Assembly (NCBI GenBank): GCA_964510585.1
Contig: CAZECW010000084.1
Span: 1-14,450, forward strand
Length of the DNA stretch: 14,450 bases
Direction of reading: 5' to 3'
Origin: an uncultured archaeon
GTDB taxonomy: Archaea; Asgardarchaeota; Jordiarchaeia; Jordiarchaeales; Jordiarchaeaceae
Of this stretch, positions 7,171-14,138 are shown piece by piece. The translations under genes were made by a program, and so were the position numbers. Every line of letters starts with the position of its first letter. The stretch's first letter is position 1. Below the pieces are notes generated by a model. That model saw only the letters and a list, made by a program, of their open reading frames with translations, had not been told where the DNA came from and did not search any database.

Positions 7171-7974
7171 GTGTTGATTATCACAATTAAGATTGGAGGA
7201 TCATTGGCAGATAGGGAAACAGGGAGCCTGGTGGAAGACGTGAACAAGCTAATAAAGGAACACAAATTAGTAATTGTTCATGGGGGAGGACCCCAGATTA
7301 ATGAAATTTCCAAGAAACTGGGGAAGGAGCCGACAATTGTGAAGTCGCCTAGCGGTTTTAAAAGTAGATTCACAGACAAAGAAACCATGGATATAACAAT
7401 CATGGCCATGGCCGGCAAAGTGAACAAAAACATAGTTGCCCTCCTACGTAAAAACCAAGTTCCCGCAATAGGAATAACTGGGCTAGATGGAAGAACGATA
7501 GTCGCCGAAAGAAAAGACAAGATAGTTGCCATTGAGAATGGAAAAAAAAGAGTACTGAGAGGGGATTACAGCGGCAAAATCAGGGAAGTAAATGGAGCGC
7601 TCCTCAAATTAATTATGGAAAACGGGTATCTTCCAGTAGTTGCACCTATTGGAATCAGTCTAGATAACGAGCCGGTAAATCTTGATGGGGATAGAGCCGC
7701 GGCGCAAATCGCAAAGGCAGTAAATGCGGATGTTTTCGTCTCACTCACAGATGTTCCAGGATTAATTATTGATGGTGAGTTGGTCAGAAATCTTAACAGG
7801 CAAGAAGCTGAGGAAGTTCTGAAAAAAGTGGAGGGTGGAATGCGGAAGAAGATTTTTGCAGCCCTCGAAGCGCTTGATTTAGGTATAAAAATGGTAATTA
7901 TTTGTTCGGGCCTTGAAAAAAATCCTGTATCTTCGGCGCTTGAACTTAAAGTGGGGACTGTAATAAAATGGTAG
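7171..7974 (+). CDS. lysZ: [LysW]-aminoadipate/[LysW]-glutamate kinase
   Basis: IKIGGS, VHGGG, SPSGFKSRFTD, NLDGDRAA, TDVPG, GGMRKK. AGGAG at 7159-7163 favours GTG 7171 or TTG 7174 over ATG 7153. Confidence 0.93.
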   Translation: MLIITIKIGGSLADRETGSLVEDVNKLIKEHKLVIVHGGGPQINEISKKLGKEPTIVKSPSGFKSRFTDKETMDITIMAMAGKVNKNIVALLRKNQVPAIGITGLDGRTIVAERKDKIVAIENGKKRVLRGDYSGKIREVNGALLKLIMENGYLPVVAPIGISLDNEPVNLDGDRAAAQIAKAVNADVFVSLTDVPGLIIDGELVRNLNRQEAEEVLKKVEGGMRKKIFAALEALDLGIKMVIICSGLEKNPVSSALELKVGTVIKW

Positions 7975-9059
7975 ACCCCATAGAATACCTTTTGGAGATG
8001 CTGGAAATTCCTAGCGTCTCTGGAAAGGAGCACAGGTTTTCTGTTTTTTTGATGGAGAGCCTCAAAAATATGGGCTACGAAGTTAAACAGGACAGTGTGG
8101 GAAACGTGCTTGGTAAAATAGGCGAAGGAAAACCCACACTTCTCTTTTCTTCTCACATTGACACTGTTCCAGGAGAGATTCCAGTTAGGGAGGAAAACGG
8201 GAGAATTTATGGCAGAGGGGCTGTTGATGCTAAAGCTTCCGTGGCCTCTATGATACTTGCAGGCTCCATAGTTCCAGATCTGAATTTGGATGGTACACTA
8301 GTATTTGCAGGTGTTGTGGAGGAGGAATCCAGCTTGAGGGGAATCCAGAGTTTATTGGAGGGAGACCTTAAAGCTGATTATGCAATATTTGGTGAGCCGA
8401 CTAAAAATGATAGAATATGTTTGGCATCTAAGGGTAGACTACTATTCAAAATAAATTTGAAAACTAGAGGCGGACATGTAGCCTGCTCTTGGGTTTATAA
8501 AAACTCTATAGAGCTTGCATATGACCTTTGGAAAAAAATCAAGGAGAGTGTGGAAACTAAAGAAAAGTCACCCTTCTTCTCCACGATTCCTAATCTTACA
8601 CAAATAGTGGGTGGCGTAGCCCCTAACGTTATTCCCAGCGAGTGCCAATTATTTATAGATGTCCGTTTCCCTTACCTCGTTAAATCCGCGAAGCTTTTGG
8701 GAACAGTTGAAAAAATCTTTAAAGAATTTAGAGAAATAAACGGGGTTCAAATAAGTTATGATGTTTTGAGCCAAATAGAAGGATTTAGAGCGAATAAGGA
8801 CTCCACGCCAGTGAAGGAATTAGCCAAAGCAATTATAGATGTTAAACACAGAGAGCCACGTTACATAAGAAAAACAGGCACCTGCTTCATGAATCTAATT
8901 GGGCGATGGTACAACATACCAACAGTAAGCTACGGGCCAGGAGACCCAGCACTGGAACACACAGACGAGGAGAACATAGAAAAGGGAGAATTCTTGGAAT
9001 CAATAGAAATCCTTGAAAAAACAATTAGAAACGTTTTTTGCCAAAAAAGAGAGTCCTAG
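7968..9059 (+). CDS. lysK: M20-family [LysW]-lysine/[LysW]-ornithine hydrolase (LysK/ArgE-like)
   Basis: SHIDTVPG, GRGAVDAK, VEEE, GEP, YGPGD..LEHT..E metallopeptidase motifs; overlaps the lysZ stop by 7 nt. Confidence 0.92.
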   Translation: MVDPIEYLLEMLEIPSVSGKEHRFSVFLMESLKNMGYEVKQDSVGNVLGKIGEGKPTLLFSSHIDTVPGEIPVREENGRIYGRGAVDAKASVASMILAGSIVPDLNLDGTLVFAGVVEEESSLRGIQSLLEGDLKADYAIFGEPTKNDRICLASKGRLLFKINLKTRGGHVACSWVYKNSIELAYDLWKKIKESVETKEKSPFFSTIPNLTQIVGGVAPNVIPSECQLFIDVRFPYLVKSAKLLGTVEKIFKEFREINGVQISYDVLSQIEGFRANKDSTPVKELAKAIIDVKHREPRYIRKTGTCFMNLIGRWYNIPTVSYGPGDPALEHTDEENIEKGEFLESIEILEKTIRNVFCQKRES

Positions 9060-9523
9060 ATGCAAACATCGACCACTCTGCCCTTTGTAACTTTAATTAA
9101 AACTTTTGGGTCTATCACCAGAAGTGATTCATCTGACCCGCCACTAGCATAGACTTTTTCATGTTTTAGAAGCCCCTGATCAATAAAAGTCGTTAACTCA
9201 CTCAGATGACCAAAGGGAGGGACGCCCCCCATCGAGAATCCAGTAACTTCCTCAATAAATTCCGCGTCAGCAAAACTAACCTTTTTTGAAGAAGTTATCT
9301 CCGCTAACTTTTTTCTGTCAACCTTCTTGTCACCGGGTGCTATAACTAGAAATGGCTTCTTGTTCTCATTTACTAGCAGTAGAGACTTTGCAATCTGAGA
9401 TGTGCTTATGCCTAGGGCTACTGCTGCTTGTTCTGAGGTAGCAGTTTTTACACTTAGTTCAATTATTTCGGCAGATATATTTTGATGTTCCAAAAATTTT
9501 TTGATCCTCTCAACCCCTGACAT
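9056..9523 (-). CDS. ybaK: YbaK/EbsC-family aminoacyl-tRNA deacylase (trans-editing domain)
   Basis: TATSEQAA..LG....QIAKSLL, GDKKVD, TGFSMGGVPPFG, VYASGG; 155 aa. Confidence 0.9.
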   Translation of the reverse strand: MSGVERIKKFLEHQNISAEIIELSVKTATSEQAAVALGISTSQIAKSLLLVNENKKPFLVIAPGDKKVDRKKLAEITSSKKVSFADAEFIEEVTGFSMGGVPPFGHLSELTTFIDQGLLKHEKVYASGGSDESLLVIDPKVLIKVTKGRVVDVCI

Positions 9524-9534
9524 AGGAATCAGCT

Positions 9535-10524
9535 CTACATCACAAGTGAAAGGATAGCCTTCTGAACGTGCAGCCTGTTTTCAGCTTCATCGTAAATTAC
9601 GGAGTGCGGCCCGTCAACCACACCGTCTGTGGCCTCAACATTTCTCCTTATGGGCAGACAGTGCATGAAAATCGAATTTTTATTGGTAAGTTCCATCAAG
9701 TCTTCGTTGCAAATCCAATTTCGAAAATTCACCCTGAGTTCTTTTTCTTCCTCGGGCTTCCCATAGTACTTGAGGGATCCCCATGCTTTCACGTACACAA
9801 TATCAGCGTCGCGATACGCTTCCTCCATGTTATGTGAAACCTCCAAATTGCAGCCGTTCGCCTCACAATTGCTTCTAGCCCAACTCATTATCTGTTCATC
9901 CAACTCAAAGCCCTCTGGATGCAGTAGGGTAACATCCAAACCGAACCTCGTCGCTATAAGAAGCGCAGAGTTGGGAACACTTACTGGCAAGGGTCTAGGG
10001 TGGTAAGCCCAACTCAAAACAAACTTTTTACCCCTCAGATTCCCCATCTTCTCCTTAATGGTTAGTATGTCAGCTAGAGCTTGGCAAGGATGAAAGAGGT
10101 CGCACTCCATATTAATTACGGGTATGTCTGCCCATCTTGCAAATTCACGTACCACCTCGTTACTCTTCCCATATTGCCAATCTGTGATGTTTGGGAATAT
10201 ACGAATAGAAATAGCATCGCCATACCTTGCCATAACCGAGGCAGTATCCTTTATAGATTCAGAACCCTTGCCAATCCAAGCCTTCTCAGCATCCATATAG
10301 ACCGCGTGGCCGCCTAGCTGAATCATACCAATCTCGAAAGACAGACGGGTGCGCGTGCTGGGATTAAAAAAAAGCATAATAAGTGATTTCCCCTGTAGCG
10401 TCGAAGAGAATTTCTTAGGGTTTTTTTTCATATCACTTGCGAGCTTTAATACAGACTCCAAATCCTCGAAGCTCCATTCCTGAGTGGTTATCAGATCCTT
10501 ACCCTTTAAATCGCTCTGAGACAT
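9535..10524 (-). CDS. argF': N-acyl-ornithine-type carbamoyltransferase (AOTCase/SOTCase, ArgF' family)
   Basis: FFNPSTRTR, HPCQ, WAYHPRPLP, VKAWG, HCLPIRRNV, EAENRLHVQKA; no SMG motif of canonical OTC. ATG 10524 (AGAGGA upstream) is preferred over 10557. Confidence 0.9.
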   Translation of the reverse strand: MSQSDLKGKDLITTQEWSFEDLESVLKLASDMKKNPKKFSSTLQGKSLIMLFFNPSTRTRLSFEIGMIQLGGHAVYMDAEKAWIGKGSESIKDTASVMARYGDAISIRIFPNITDWQYGKSNEVVREFARWADIPVINMECDLFHPCQALADILTIKEKMGNLRGKKFVLSWAYHPRPLPVSVPNSALLIATRFGLDVTLLHPEGFELDEQIMSWARSNCEANGCNLEVSHNMEEAYRDADIVYVKAWGSLKYYGKPEEEKELRVNFRNWICNEDLMELTNKNSIFMHCLPIRRNVEATDGVVDGPHSVIYDEAENRLHVQKAILSLVM

Positions 10525-10716
10525 AAGACATCCTCTAGATTTGGTATCTCTTAACATTCTCTCTCATGGTTTAAAAAAATTTTCAAACTAGCAAGGTTAA
10601 AATATTAATTCAAATAAAAAATAGAGACGCGAATTCTCATTTAGAGATATTTCGCAGACATCAAATTATTGGGCTAAAAAGTTAATCAAGACTCAAAGAA
10701 AAATTTTTCACTTATC

Positions 10717-11208: not shown

Positions 11209-12450
11209 CTAGTATTTTTTTAAAACTTTTGCAATTATGTGTCTTAGGGGTAAATTTGTTTCTTTTGCTATTTTTTTAAGGTCTTCAAACTCGGGTTTCA
11301 TTCTGATAATTTTGCCACTTGTGTCTCTGGCGATTTTGAGCCTAAACTCGTAAGATTTACCCTCAATGGTAATACGGGCAGTATCAATTTCACGTTTCAA
11401 AACTAGCCGGGGAGTGGGAGTTACGCGAACACCCAAGCTTCCGGTTTCGTCTATTAATATTCTAGAAAGTTTGGGGGCATCATCCAAGCTTGATATTACT
11501 TTGATGATTTGACCAGGGCGACCTTTTTTTGTAACAACGGGTATTACGCTGACATCCTTAGCTCCTTTTTCGAACAGGACATCCACAGTTTGACTAATTA
11601 TTTCTCCGGAAACATCGTCGACATTAGTCTCCAAAACCGCAACCATTTCCTCAACAAGGTTATAGGATCTCCCATTTGGAGCATCTCTATCACCGATAAT
11701 AATTCTTAAAATATTTGGTAGGTTGGGAAAATTTTTCATTCCTGCACCATACCCTACCCTGATGTTTCGGACGCTGGGAAGAAAACTAGTAAACTTGACA
11801 CCCAAGCTTGCAATAATTGAGGCCCCAGTGGGTGTGGTTAACTCAAAATCAAAGGGTCCCCCTCTTATTTGGAAGTTATTGCTTTTAGCGATTTCTAATA
11901 CAGCAGGGGGTGGAACGGACATAGTTCCATGTACCGATATCACTTGTCCGCCTCCCACAGCAATGGGCGAACAAAGCCATTGGCAATCCTTTATTAAGCC
12001 CAGATCTTCGCATGCCACAGCTGAGCCTATAGCGTCTGCTAGAGTATCAGCAGAACCTATTTCGTGTAAATGGAGGTGATCCGGGTGCTCCCCATGAACT
12101 CTAGACTCAGCTTCCACAATAGATCTCACAACCTTTATTGCGAATTCTTTGGCTTCTTGAGATATGGGTAGCTCTTTTGTGCAGGCGATTGTGGCATCTA
12201 GAACTTCTTTTCCACTTCTGGGTTCATCCACTTCGTTGGGCAATATTTGAACCTGGGTGGCTCTTAACTCACACCTCGTAGTTTTACTAATGTTTACTTC
12301 TATCCCGCTGCAACCCCTGAGAAATTTGGGAATAAGTTTTATTGCGCTAACCACCCTATCCTGGTTTGCACCTAAATCTAGTAATGCCCCTAAGAACATA
12401 TCACCAGAGATCCCAGCCACTTGACAGTCAATAAACGCAACTCTGCTCAT
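11209..12450 (-). CDS. larC: Nickel-pincer nucleotide cofactor nickel insertase LarC (single unframeshifted ORF)
   Basis: AGISGDMFLGAL, HLHEIGSAD, HG...VPPPA, ELTTPTGA, GYGAG, ETNVDD, KKGRPG, ETGSLGVR, KPEFED. Confidence 0.95.
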   Translation of the reverse strand: MSRVAFIDCQVAGISGDMFLGALLDLGANQDRVVSAIKLIPKFLRGCSGIEVNISKTTRCELRATQVQILPNEVDEPRSGKEVLDATIACTKELPISQEAKEFAIKVVRSIVEAESRVHGEHPDHLHLHEIGSADTLADAIGSAVACEDLGLIKDCQWLCSPIAVGGGQVISVHGTMSVPPPAVLEIAKSNNFQIRGGPFDFELTTPTGASIIASLGVKFTSFLPSVRNIRVGYGAGMKNFPNLPNILRIIIGDRDAPNGRSYNLVEEMVAVLETNVDDVSGEIISQTVDVLFEKGAKDVSVIPVVTKKGRPGQIIKVISSLDDAPKLSRILIDETGSLGVRVTPTPRLVLKREIDTARITIEGKSYEFRLKIARDTSGKIIRMKPEFEDLKKIAKETNLPLRHIIAKVLKKY

Positions 12451-13259
12451 TTCTTCTTACCTTCATCAGTTCTTATTTTTGCCCTATATCTCGCCACTCT
12501 ATTTGCTATCAGAGCCGCCGTAGCTCCTGCACCGAACCCATTGTCAATATTAACTACGCTGAGACCCGCTACACAGGATTGCAGCATTGTAATAAGCGCG
12601 CCTAGCCCCTTTCCTCCAAATCCGTAACCAGTGCTTGCGGGCACTCCGATGACTGGAATATTGACTAAACTAGCCACTATTGAGGGAAGTGTTCCCTCCA
12701 TACCTGCAACTACAATTAGCGAGTCAACTTCCGCCTCCATCATTTTGCTCAAAGGGGGAAATACCCTGTGTAGTCCCGCGATGCCCACATCATATGAGGT
12801 TAGAACTTCGCATCCCATAGACTCCGCTATAACTTTTGCTTCGTCTGCCACAGGAATATCTGAAGTGCCTGCAGTAATAATTCCCACTTTTCCACCTGTC
12901 TTCTCGAAAGACTCTCCTTTACGGCTTACTCTAATAGTTCCAGATTTTTCAAAGATTTCTAATTTAAAATTCTCAGACAAATCCTTTTTTAGAAGAGAAA
13001 TCTGTTCCTCGTTCGCTCTAGAGATTAAAACATATGATTTTTGTGAGAGTACATTATTAATGATTTTTACTAGATCTTCTGGACTCTTCCCGCTGGCAAA
13101 AATAACTTCGGGAACACCCTTCCGCAGTTCCCTTCTCAAATCAAACTTCACAAAATCGTCGATCTCTAGAATGCAGCTACTTCTCAGTAAATTCTCTGCC
13201 TCCTCAATAGAAATTTTCCCAGCAGAAAACTTCTCCAAGATACTTCTTATTTGACTCAT
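12447..13259 (-). CDS. larB: NPN cofactor biosynthesis carboxylase/hydrolase LarB
   Basis: TAGTSDIPVA.EA, DVGIAGLHR, AGMEG, PASTGYG, MLQSC, VVNIDNGFGAG; stop overlaps the larC start by 4 nt. ATG 13259 is preferred on RBS spacing. Confidence 0.95.
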   Translation of the reverse strand: MSQIRSILEKFSAGKISIEEAENLLRSSCILEIDDFVKFDLRRELRKGVPEVIFASGKSPEDLVKIINNVLSQKSYVLISRANEEQISLLKKDLSENFKLEIFEKSGTIRVSRKGESFEKTGGKVGIITAGTSDIPVADEAKVIAESMGCEVLTSYDVGIAGLHRVFPPLSKMMEAEVDSLIVVAGMEGTLPSIVASLVNIPVIGVPASTGYGFGGKGLGALITMLQSCVAGLSVVNIDNGFGAGATAALIANRVARYRAKIRTDEGKKK

Positions 13260-13295
13260 CCAAATCAATCCTTATCTCGCCATTGTTGTAACCAT

Positions 13296-14138
13296 TTAAG
13301 AAGTGGAAATTATAGTCTTCCCTTTTAAAGCTTCGTCCATGGCCCCAGTCCTATATCCTTCTGCGTCTAAGGTGCAATACTTAAAACCTAACTCCTTAAG
13401 TTTTGCCACTATCTTGTCTAAAACCTCTGTTGAGAATAGTTTTTCCAGCTCCTCCTTTCCAACTTCGATTCTTGCCAAATCACCATGACTTCTAACCCTT
13501 AATACCTTTACACCAACCAGCTGTTTTATGTATCTTTCAGATTCAGCTATTCTACGGAGTTTTTCGTAGGTGATGACTTCACCATAGGGGATTCTTGTGG
13601 CCAAACAAGCCATGGAGGGCTGGTTAGAAACAGTTAAACCTCTTTTACGGGCAATAATTCTTATTTCCTCCTTGGTTATGCCAGCTATTATGTAGGGAGA
13701 CAGTATTCCTTCCTCATATAGGGCCAAAATCCCTGGACGGTGGGCAAACATATCTGAGGCATTACTTCCCTCAACAACTAATTCGTATCCTTTTTCTTCG
13801 GCTATTTTTTTCAGATTCTGGAACATTTTCTTTTTGCAATAATAACATCTATTAGCAGGGTTCGCCACAAATTGGGAATCACTCAAACTGTCAAACCAGA
13901 TAACTGTATGCTCTACCTCCAACTCTCTTGCTACCCTCTCTGCATTTTCTTTCTCTTCAGGGGGAATGATTGGAGAGTCTACAGTTATTGCCAAAACCTT
14001 TCTGCATACATCTTTTGCTAGGCTCACCATGACGCTACTGTCAACTCCACCGGAAAAAGCCACCATTACAGTTTTATTCTTAAGGACACTATGCACAGCA
14101 TCTATTTTTGACACTATTTGATCATTCAATTTCTGCAA
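13296..14138 (-). CDS. larE: ATP-dependent sulfur transferase LarE (PP-loop)
   Basis: VAFSGGVDS, RCYYCKK, GSNASD..HRPG, PSMACLATRIPYG, RVRSHG..ARIE, GFKYCTLD..GYRTG. Confidence 0.95.
   Translation of the reverse strand: MQKLNDQIVSKIDAVHSVLKNKTVMVAFSGGVDSSVMVSLAKDVCRKVLAITVDSPIIPPEEKENAERVARELEVEHTVIWFDSLSDSQFVANPANRCYYCKKKMFQNLKKIAEEKGYELVVEGSNASDMFAHRPGILALYEEGILSPYIIAGITKEEIRIIARKRGLTVSNQPSMACLATRIPYGEVITYEKLRRIAESERYIKQLVGVKVLRVRSHGDLARIEVGKEELEKLFSTEVLDKIVAKLKELGFKYCTLDAEGYRTGAMDEALKGKTIISTS

Follow-up and report, generated by a model that had tools for sequence, protein, structure and literature searches.

The window analysed here is a stretch of 14,450 nucleotides that makes up contig C84 of the 3.78 Mb, 96% complete genome of an Asgard archaeon. 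It carries a gene for a transcarbamylase next to genes for arginine synthesis and for the carrier protein LysW. The transcarbamylase gene is located on the reverse strand, and its longest open reading frame (ORF), at positions 9535-10557, encodes 340 amino acids. The start codon is probably that of M12, at position 10524, because the nearest homologs are 329-331 amino acids long. The nearest public homologs retrieved in the homolog search carry the labels Freyarchaeota or Jordarchaeum. According to its matches to NF003384, Pfam, and the PDB, and to its AlphaFold2 (AF2) model, the protein is a transcarbamylase of the knotted type represented by N-acetylornithine carbamoyltransferase (AOTCase) and N-succinylornithine carbamoyltransferase (SOTCase). 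It belongs to a class with a short 80s loop containing the motif SES, which is referred to here as the short-loop class.

The genes on the forward strand of the window form the row argG-argH-lysW-lysX-lysZ-lysK, and the transcarbamylase gene is convergent (tail-to-tail) with its lysW-lysX-lysZ-lysK part. Upstream of lysW are positioned argG (3139-4410; NF001770, 568.5 bits), which encodes argininosuccinate synthase, and argH (4407-5927; TIGR00838, 511.1 bits), which encodes argininosuccinate lyase. The lysW/argW gene (6052-6225) encodes a carrier of 57 amino acids with a zinc ribbon and the C-terminal sequence EEEDWGE, identified by NF041070 (E-value 3.5e-17), Pfam PF21344, and alignment. It is followed by lysX/argX (6213-7076; TIGR02144, 304.9 bits, above cut-off), encoding the ATP-grasp ligase that loads an amino acid on LysW, and by lysZ (7153-7974; NF010659, 274.6 bits, above cut-off), encoding the [LysW]-glutamate/aminoadipate kinase. 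The lysK paralog (7968-9059) encodes an M20 hydrolase (NF003367, E-value 2.4e-74, below cut-off; TIGR01902, 228 bits, above cut-off) and is proposed below to be a LysW-citrulline hydrolase. The genes of the window are referred to as cluster B, because a second, complete lysW-X-Y-Z-J-K cluster, cluster A, is located on contig C173 of the same genome. The LysK proteins of the two clusters are 39% identical. The genome encodes a single LysY and one close LysJ, both in cluster A. In tblastn searches with the LysW-pathway proteins of the window as queries, the ArgB/C/D/E-type genes of the genome were the LysZ/Y/J/K genes of the two lysW clusters, plus three distant aminotransferase and several distant M20 paralogs. 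The genome also encodes a canonical ornithine carbamoyltransferase (OTCase) on contig C140, with the motifs DVFVSMG and HCLPAHRG, PyrB on contig C72, and a carbamoyl phosphate synthetase.

The LysW of cluster A (C173:58004-58174; L006:10005-10175, reverse strand) ends in EDWGQ, with the codon CAA for the last residue. The C-terminal Glu of EDWGE, which provides the gamma-carboxyl attachment site, is otherwise invariant, and four cluster-A orthologs in relatives end in Glu. The Gln end may stem from a variant in the assembly or in the population, or the cluster-A carrier may be inactive.

The transcarbamylase contains the Pfam domains OTCace_N and OTCace. It passes the cut-off of the NCBIfam N-acetylornithine carbamoyltransferase equivalog NF003384 (399.8 bits; cut-off 288) and scores just below that of the OTCase model TIGR00658 (275.7 bits; cut-off 280.85). 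The top PDB matches in HMMER searches were entries of AOTCase from Xanthomonas campestris (E-value ~1e-97), which aligned with residues 9-338 at approximately 55% identity. The AF2 model, calculated from a 64-sequence alignment, has a mean predicted local distance difference test (pLDDT) score of 95.1, and the 80s loop is its only part of lower confidence. The model superimposes on the X. campestris AOTCase 3KZK with a TM score of 0.92 and a root-mean-square deviation of 2.0 Å; the TM scores reach up to 0.87 for OTCases and 0.84 for the SOTCase of Bacteroides fragilis. The carbamoyl-phosphate motifs of the transcarbamylase superfamily, SxRT, HPxQ, and HxLP (PMC4581275), are all present as STRT (residues 67-70), HPCQ (156-159), and HCLP (299-302). 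The protein also has the marks of the knotted class, namely the proline-rich loop WAYHPRPLP, with invariant H186 and P191, and a 120s segment that aligns without gaps with that of X. campestris AOTCase. A trefoil knot is expected in the second domain, because the protein shares 55% identity with a knotted structure.

The 80s loop of the transcarbamylase (W94-D104, WIGKGSESIKD; positions 10246-10278, reverse strand) is ten residues shorter than that of X. campestris AOTCase and retains the loop Trp, so that W94 is the equivalent of Trp77. In the HMMER alignments with PDB sequences (3KZC, 3L05), the query AW-----I-----GKGSESI stands opposite AWPIEFNLGTVMDGDTEEHI of AOTCase, with two gaps of five residues each. 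S99 (codon 10261-10263) is paired with Glu92 of AOTCase, because entry 3L05, the E92S mutant, has its Ser in that column, with GDTSEHI in the same columns as GKGSESI of the query. MAFFT alignment of 120 homologs produced the same register, with a segment of 31-32 residues in the 91 closest homologs, which constitute the short-loop set, versus 39-45 residues in the long-loop relatives. W94, G96, and E100 are present in all 91 short-loop homologs, and S99 is present in 89, with Ala in the remaining two. Judged from these alignments, the short loop is a fixed character of the clade and neither a chance feature nor an alignment artefact. The HMMER and MAFFT alignments confirm the claims of an earlier note on this DNA that the loop has about ten residues fewer while keeping its Trp and that Ser occupies the position of Glu92. 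The note had also described an OTCase-length loop joined to an AOTCase-like substrate domain, and both parts of this description hold: the loop length is within one residue of that of OTCase, WAYHPRPLP, K257, and HCLPIRRN are present, and the OTCase loop DxxxSMG is not found in the protein, where the corresponding segment is VYVKAWGSLKYYGK. The OTCase residues D231, S235, and M236, which interact with the second substrate, belong to the DxxxSMG loop.

Glu92, Asn185, and Lys302 (X. campestris numbering) separate AOTCase from SOTCase, which has A/S/P/V/Q, P, and V/I/E at the respective positions (PMC4581275). As counted from the PDB alignment, the transcarbamylase has Ser99, Pro191, and Glu308 there, all three of the SOTCase type. 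Pro191 (codon 9985-9987, reverse strand) is part of WAYHPRPLP and occurs in 91 of 91 short-loop homologs. Glu308 (codon 9634-9636, reverse strand) is part of HCLPIRRNVEATD, and the top PDB match of the protein is the K302E mutant 3M5C. The first position is Ser in 89 of the short-loop homologs, and the third is Val in 69, Glu in 18, and Ile in 3. Glu308 was considered as a mimic of the carboxylated Lys302 of X. campestris AOTCase, and this was rejected because the clade members with Val show that the feature is not conserved. Because Ser99, Pro191, and Glu308 fail the rule of Glu92, Asn185, and Lys302, the public name 'N-acetylornithine carbamoyltransferase' is not justified by the published residue rule. 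The score against NF003384 explains the public annotation, yet it conflicts with that rule.

Position 92 is a specificity switch, as the earlier note stated: the AOTCase mutants E92A, E92P, E92S, and E92V bind N-succinyl ligands and are represented by crystal entries with N-succinyl-norvaline, and the GapMind 2026 preprint also refers to this switch. However, the Ser is not distinctive. Among 34 long-loop representatives, Glu is found at position 92 in just two, and Pro at position 185 in 29. A residue other than Glu at position 92 is the common state of the whole family, and hence it is not specific to LysW.

The residues of AOTCase that contact carbamoyl phosphate and the ornithine moiety are S49, R51, T52, R112, H148, Q151, C294, L295, R322, W77, E144, and K252 (PMC4581275). 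All of their equivalents are kept in the transcarbamylase as S67, R69, T70, R119, H156, Q159, C300, L301, R328, W94, E151, and K257, and each of them is present in 83-91 of the 91 short-loop homologs. H186, R188 (Lys or Arg in 85 of 91), and R304 are located in motifs that match those of the SOTCase succinyl anchors H176, R178, and R278 (B. fragilis numbering), a correspondence of motif placement rather than of residue-level alignment.

A maximum-likelihood tree was calculated from 89 sequences: 21 short-loop enzymes, 32 long-loop enzymes of the HCLP.RRN type, 27 members of other classes, and 9 canonical OTCases as the outgroup. The short-loop sample was drawn from the first homolog search; no short-loop representative was among the best 150 matches of the representatives search. 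The short-loop sequences form a clade with support of 95/88 and the long-loop sequences one with support of 96/91, and the two are sisters with support of 100/99. The transcarbamylase is thus a member of the knotted N-acyl-ornithine transcarbamylase lineage, in a clade that is sister to AOTCase and SOTCase together and part of neither. The loop Trp is a shared derived character of the short-loop and long-loop clades. The next outgroups to this pair have short or intermediate loops. A single indel event explains the tree in either direction, so that loss of loop residues in the ancestor of the short-loop clade is as parsimonious as a gain in that of the long-loop clade. The difference in loop length is real, but its description in the earlier note as a truncation is not established, because the two clades are sisters whose outgroups have short or intermediate loops, and the long loop may equally well be an insertion.

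Among the 301 genomes sampled from the phylum, 26 encode a member of the short-loop class, called at an E-value of 1e-115 or better, and 25 of these 26 contain lysW. Short-loop forms are thus not common in genomes without lysW. In the families f1, f2, f28, and f30, the short-loop gene adjoins lysW-lysX-lysZ-lysK in tail-to-tail orientation, and one member has lysY in the cluster too. A Helarchaeota contig, again with tail-to-tail orientation, has the order argG-argH-lysW-lysX-lysZ-lysK, with the transcarbamylase gene overlapping the 3' end of lysK. The transcarbamylase identities across the lysW-linked clusters are 63-100%. In family f9, which includes 13 of the short-loop genomes, lysW is present in 12 of the 13, and two genomes only have a clear lysW and no short-loop match. 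The linkage holds in f9 at the level of genome co-occurrence alone; synteny was considered there too and rejected, since no arg or lys genes are located within 8-10 kb of the transcarbamylase gene or of lysW. The single clade, the synteny, and the genome co-occurrence all support the possibility, raised in the earlier note as a point to check, that the short-loop forms are a lysW-linked clade.

Seven f9 genomes, five of which are 92-100% complete, encode the short-loop enzyme and PyrB only and no canonical OTCase. Five of these seven were tested further, and all have argG, one lysW of the window type, and one lysX-lysZ-lysK set each, which is closest to cluster B of the window; no carbamate kinase was found in the five. 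In the other 19 of the 26 short-loop genomes, that of the window among them, the short-loop enzyme coexists with a canonical OTCase that has the motifs DVFVSMG and HCLPAHRG.

A carbamate kinase (416 bits, above cut-off; C146:5546-6469) is encoded in the genome of the window and in a genome of the same genus, and none was found in nine other short-loop genomes tested. The idea that the canonical OTCase works catabolically together with carbamate kinase, which would account for its coexistence with the short-loop enzyme, was considered and rejected, since among five OTCase-positive genomes tested arcC occurs in the genus of the window only and is absent from the other four. One short-loop homolog (P0018; L043, G296:C241) carries the NCBI label 'Candidatus Deferrimicrobium sp.', a bacterium, and probably comes from a genome placed among Asgard archaea; the record is probably mislabelled or misbinned.

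X. campestris AOTCase (ArgF', 3KZC/3KZK) is the closest solved relative of the short-loop enzyme, with which it has in common the proline-rich loop W.YHP.PL, Trp77, E144, K252, and HCLP.RRN. It takes ornithine with a blocked alpha-amino group, and the blocking group is removed after carbamoylation. The short-loop enzyme differs from it in its 80s loop, in the replacement of Glu92, Asn185, and Lys302 by Ser, Pro, and Glu, in its linkage to a LysW cluster, and in that ArgJ, the sole acetylating enzyme searched for, was not found. B. fragilis SOTCase (2FG6/2FG7) represents the type whose states the short-loop enzyme has at the three discriminating positions, is anabolic, and is encoded in an arginine cluster, and the succinyl group of its substrate resembles the gamma-glutamyl link of LysW. 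However, it is more distant than AOTCase (E-value 1.6e-46), and with its extended 80s loop it falls in the sister clade of long-loop enzymes. The SOTCase-type clusters of three long-loop relatives (P0117, P0114, and P0104, one of them annotated as Woesearchaeota) have the order argC-argD-argF'-argB, with argG, argE, and argH in two of the three, and contain neither lysW nor lysX. In long-loop ArgF' clusters, one of them from a Woesearchaeota record, a gene of 346 amino acids without a Pfam match (L110:4764-5804, L111:4737-5777) separates argG from argC and may encode the N-acyl-glutamate synthase of the long-loop ArgF' pathways.

The LysW/ArgW arginine pathway is known from Sulfolobus, Thermococcus, and haloarchaea such as Natrinema gari. 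Its carrier, ligase, kinase, reductase, aminotransferase, and M20 hydrolase are the same as here, and the haloarchaeal genes are likewise clustered with argG and argH. In the known pathway, ArgE/LysK frees ornithine, from which canonical ArgF then makes citrulline (PMC10433800). The cluster in the window differs in that an N-acyl-type transcarbamylase occupies the place of ArgF next to LysK, which implies that carbamoylation would precede release.

We slightly favour the interpretation that the gene encodes a LysW-gamma-ornithine carbamoyltransferase and that the LysK paralog of the cluster releases citrulline. ArgX would load glutamate on the LysW of cluster B, and LysZ of cluster B together with the sole LysY and LysJ, encoded in cluster A, would convert LysW-glutamate to LysW-gamma-ornithine. 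With the alpha-amino group of the ornithine remaining bound to LysW, the short-loop enzyme would then carbamoylate the delta-amino group, using carbamoyl phosphate as the donor and yielding LysW-gamma-citrulline. The LysK paralog of cluster B would free citrulline for ArgG and ArgH. In LysW, the C-terminal Glu bears the substrate on its gamma-carboxyl (PMC4490483), and LysW-ornithine is thus an N-alpha-(gamma-glutamyl)-ornithine. By analogy, it looks like N-succinyl-ornithine with a peptide chain next to the free carboxylate (-CO-CH2-CH2-CH(COO-)-NH-peptide). A succinyl-like gamma-glutamyl link fits the SOTCase-type residues S99, P191, and E308. In AOTCase, the acyl pocket of one subunit is covered by the 80s loop of the next (PMC4581275), and a loop shorter by ten residues may leave room for a protein-borne substituent, in keeping with the more open site proposed by the earlier note.

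The charge of the enzyme would be favourable for binding a partner with the acidic C-terminus EEEDWGE. At two positions of the 120s loop, occupied by G130 and N133 in the transcarbamylase (10159-10170, reverse strand), 82% and 94% of 34 long-loop representatives have a conserved acidic residue, versus 1% of 87 short-loop sequences, which have Gly or Lys and Asn or His there. The median net charge is +3 in the short-loop class versus -1.5 in the long-loop class. The absence of the two acidic residues might reduce repulsion of the acidic LysW tail. A basic patch, as envisaged by the earlier note, did not hold up: its K81 and K86 (K92 and K97 in the numbering of the ORF) vary in the clade, and HPR/K and RRN are family-wide. 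The complex of two enzyme copies with LysW, predicted from our own alignments, had a score of 0.42, and the best of three controls had 0.03. Of 80 solved complexes, 58 attained that mark, as did 2 of 110 mismatched pairs; those that attained it with scores of 0.60 or less were only 7 of the solved complexes but both of the passing mismatches. This calibration applies only approximately to the present prediction, because its input consisted of own alignments and included one chain twice. The runs agreed in at least 79% of contacts, and the pLDDT of the partner was at least 75. We know of no solved complex of a transcarbamylase with LysW, and it is thus unlikely that the prediction derives from a memorised structure. 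The complex prediction lends weak support to recognition of LysW by the enzyme.

Several observations weigh against a LysW-bound substrate. The putative substrate is assigned from genomic context, and the states Ser99, Pro191, and Glu or Val at 308 are common to most long-loop relatives and do not single out LysW. The complex prediction is weak and gives no interface. The genomes of family f9 lack arg or lysW neighbours beside the transcarbamylase gene, and the co-occurrence counts come from related genomes, which are not independent. Furthermore, the 19 short-loop genomes with a canonical OTCase have the known route, LysK and then ArgF, open to them, so that the short-loop enzyme would be redundant there, and the coexisting OTCase is not explained as catabolic.

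An unlikely alternative, though the best surviving one, is that the enzyme is a functional OTCase on a knotted scaffold, with LysK freeing ornithine, the short-loop enzyme carbamoylating free ornithine, and the OTCase-length loop reflecting this activity. The order of release before carbamoylation would be that of the known ArgW pathway, the 80s loop is nearly as long as that of canonical OTCases (ArgF/ArgI; Pyrococcus furiosus 1A1S), which also have the STRT, HPxQ, and HCLP motifs, the score against TIGR00658 is barely under the cut-off, and the seven f9 genomes hold no further enzyme of the OTCase family except PyrB, with argG in the five tested. However, canonical OTCases are unknotted and hold free ornithine with the DxxxSMG loop, which the short-loop enzyme lacks; its site is of the AOTCase/SOTCase kind, with E151, K257, and the proline-rich loop, and with a 240s loop unable to close. 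X. campestris AOTCase is not known to use ornithine. Most genomes with the short-loop enzyme have a canonical OTCase of their own, in the genome of the window on another contig, and a second one would be redundant.

It is less likely still that the enzyme is an ordinary small-molecule transcarbamylase of N-succinyl-, N-acetyl-, or another N-acyl-ornithine, which is located near lysW because genes of the arginine regulon cluster together. Passing the NCBIfam AOTCase equivalog cut-off would agree with such a function, as would the three SOTCase-type discriminators and the binding of N-succinyl-norvaline by the E92S mutant of AOTCase. Against it, ArgJ (PF01960) was not found in any of the 26 short-loop genomes, including the 96% complete genome of the window, in a search that did not extend to ArgA-type GCN5-related N-acetyltransferases (GNATs). 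NCBIfam and Pfam searches of the cluster in the window identified no candidate succinyl- or acetyl-glutamate synthase, although a GNAT dispersed elsewhere in the genome is possible. All close ArgB/C/D/E-type genes of the genome belong to the two lysW clusters, and the long-loop relatives, from which the short-loop clade is separate, have small-acyl-type clusters without lysW. A catabolic or other carbamoyltransferase role is the least likely: although Asgard genomes contain several other uncharacterised transcarbamylase classes, one of them in a non-arginine context in the single case examined, and the genome of the window has a carbamate kinase, the synteny with argG-argH-lysW-lysX-lysZ-lysK is conserved, and the short-loop enzyme is the sole candidate for forming citrulline in the seven OTCase-free genomes, of which the five tested have argG and no carbamate kinase.

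Pairs of such other classes, often adjacent or a few kb apart, occur in many Asgard genomes of families f7, f12, and f21, in which clear lysW matches are rare. They include an intermediate-loop class with the motifs Y..PAL..TERxSD and HCLPxDRG and short-loop forms with RLG-EGES and HCLPVFRG or with RLKT..AGET and CGPVDR. A gene of the TERISD class on a contig annotated as Nitrososphaeria (L109:8001-9041) lies beside genes for two amidohydrolases, a phosphoribosyltransferase, a Bmp/ATP-binding cassette (ABC) nucleoside-type transporter, and aldehyde ferredoxin oxidoreductase (AFOR) enzymes, which suggests a catabolic role in purine or pyrimidine metabolism rather than a role in arginine synthesis. 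The intermediate-loop TERISD class was considered as a further LysW-linked class and rejected, since the Nitrososphaeria example is not among arg genes.

The broader form of the LysW-bound proposal, on which we are evenly divided, is that Asgard lineages of the Frey/Jordarchaeia, Hel, and Loki types form citrulline on a carrier protein, with the short-loop clade carbamoylating LysW-gamma-ornithine and a dedicated LysK paralog releasing citrulline. No earlier transcarbamylase would have had a substrate bound to a protein. No description of the carbamoylation of LysW-bound ornithine or of LysW-citrulline was found in the full-text literature, of which our coverage was incomplete. The enzymes for acetyl- and succinyl-ornithine all belong to the sister group of the short-loop clade, and for this reason transcarbamylation of carrier-bound and of small-acyl substrates may go back to a common origin. 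If the proposal is correct, the known reach of the LysW carrier system is extended by one step, and the transcarbamylase family gains a substrate that is bound to a protein. A systematic misnaming in public records, as 'N-acetylornithine carbamoyltransferase' for proteins that fail the residue rule and for which no ArgJ was found, would be corrected. The length of the 80s loop and the charge of the 120s loop would become a testable determinant of the choice between small-acyl and carrier-protein substrates. Metabolic reconstructions of Asgard archaea would be affected as well, since arginine synthesis would otherwise look incomplete in genomes without a canonical OTCase.

Between lysK and the transcarbamylase gene, the window contains a YbaK-like (YbaK/EbsC) gene on the reverse strand (9056-9523; TIGR00011, 97.7 bits, below cut-off). 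Examination of six relatives (loci L037-L042) revealed no such gene at the corresponding place of their clusters, and it is probably outside the arginine pathway. Beyond the transcarbamylase gene, the reverse strand (11209-14138) encodes in a row LarC, in which LarC1 and LarC2 are fused, a LarB-like protein of the 5-aminoimidazole ribonucleotide (AIR) carboxylase family, and a LarE-like PP-loop ATPase. Together, the three genes constitute a set for the biosynthesis of the nickel-pincer cofactor.

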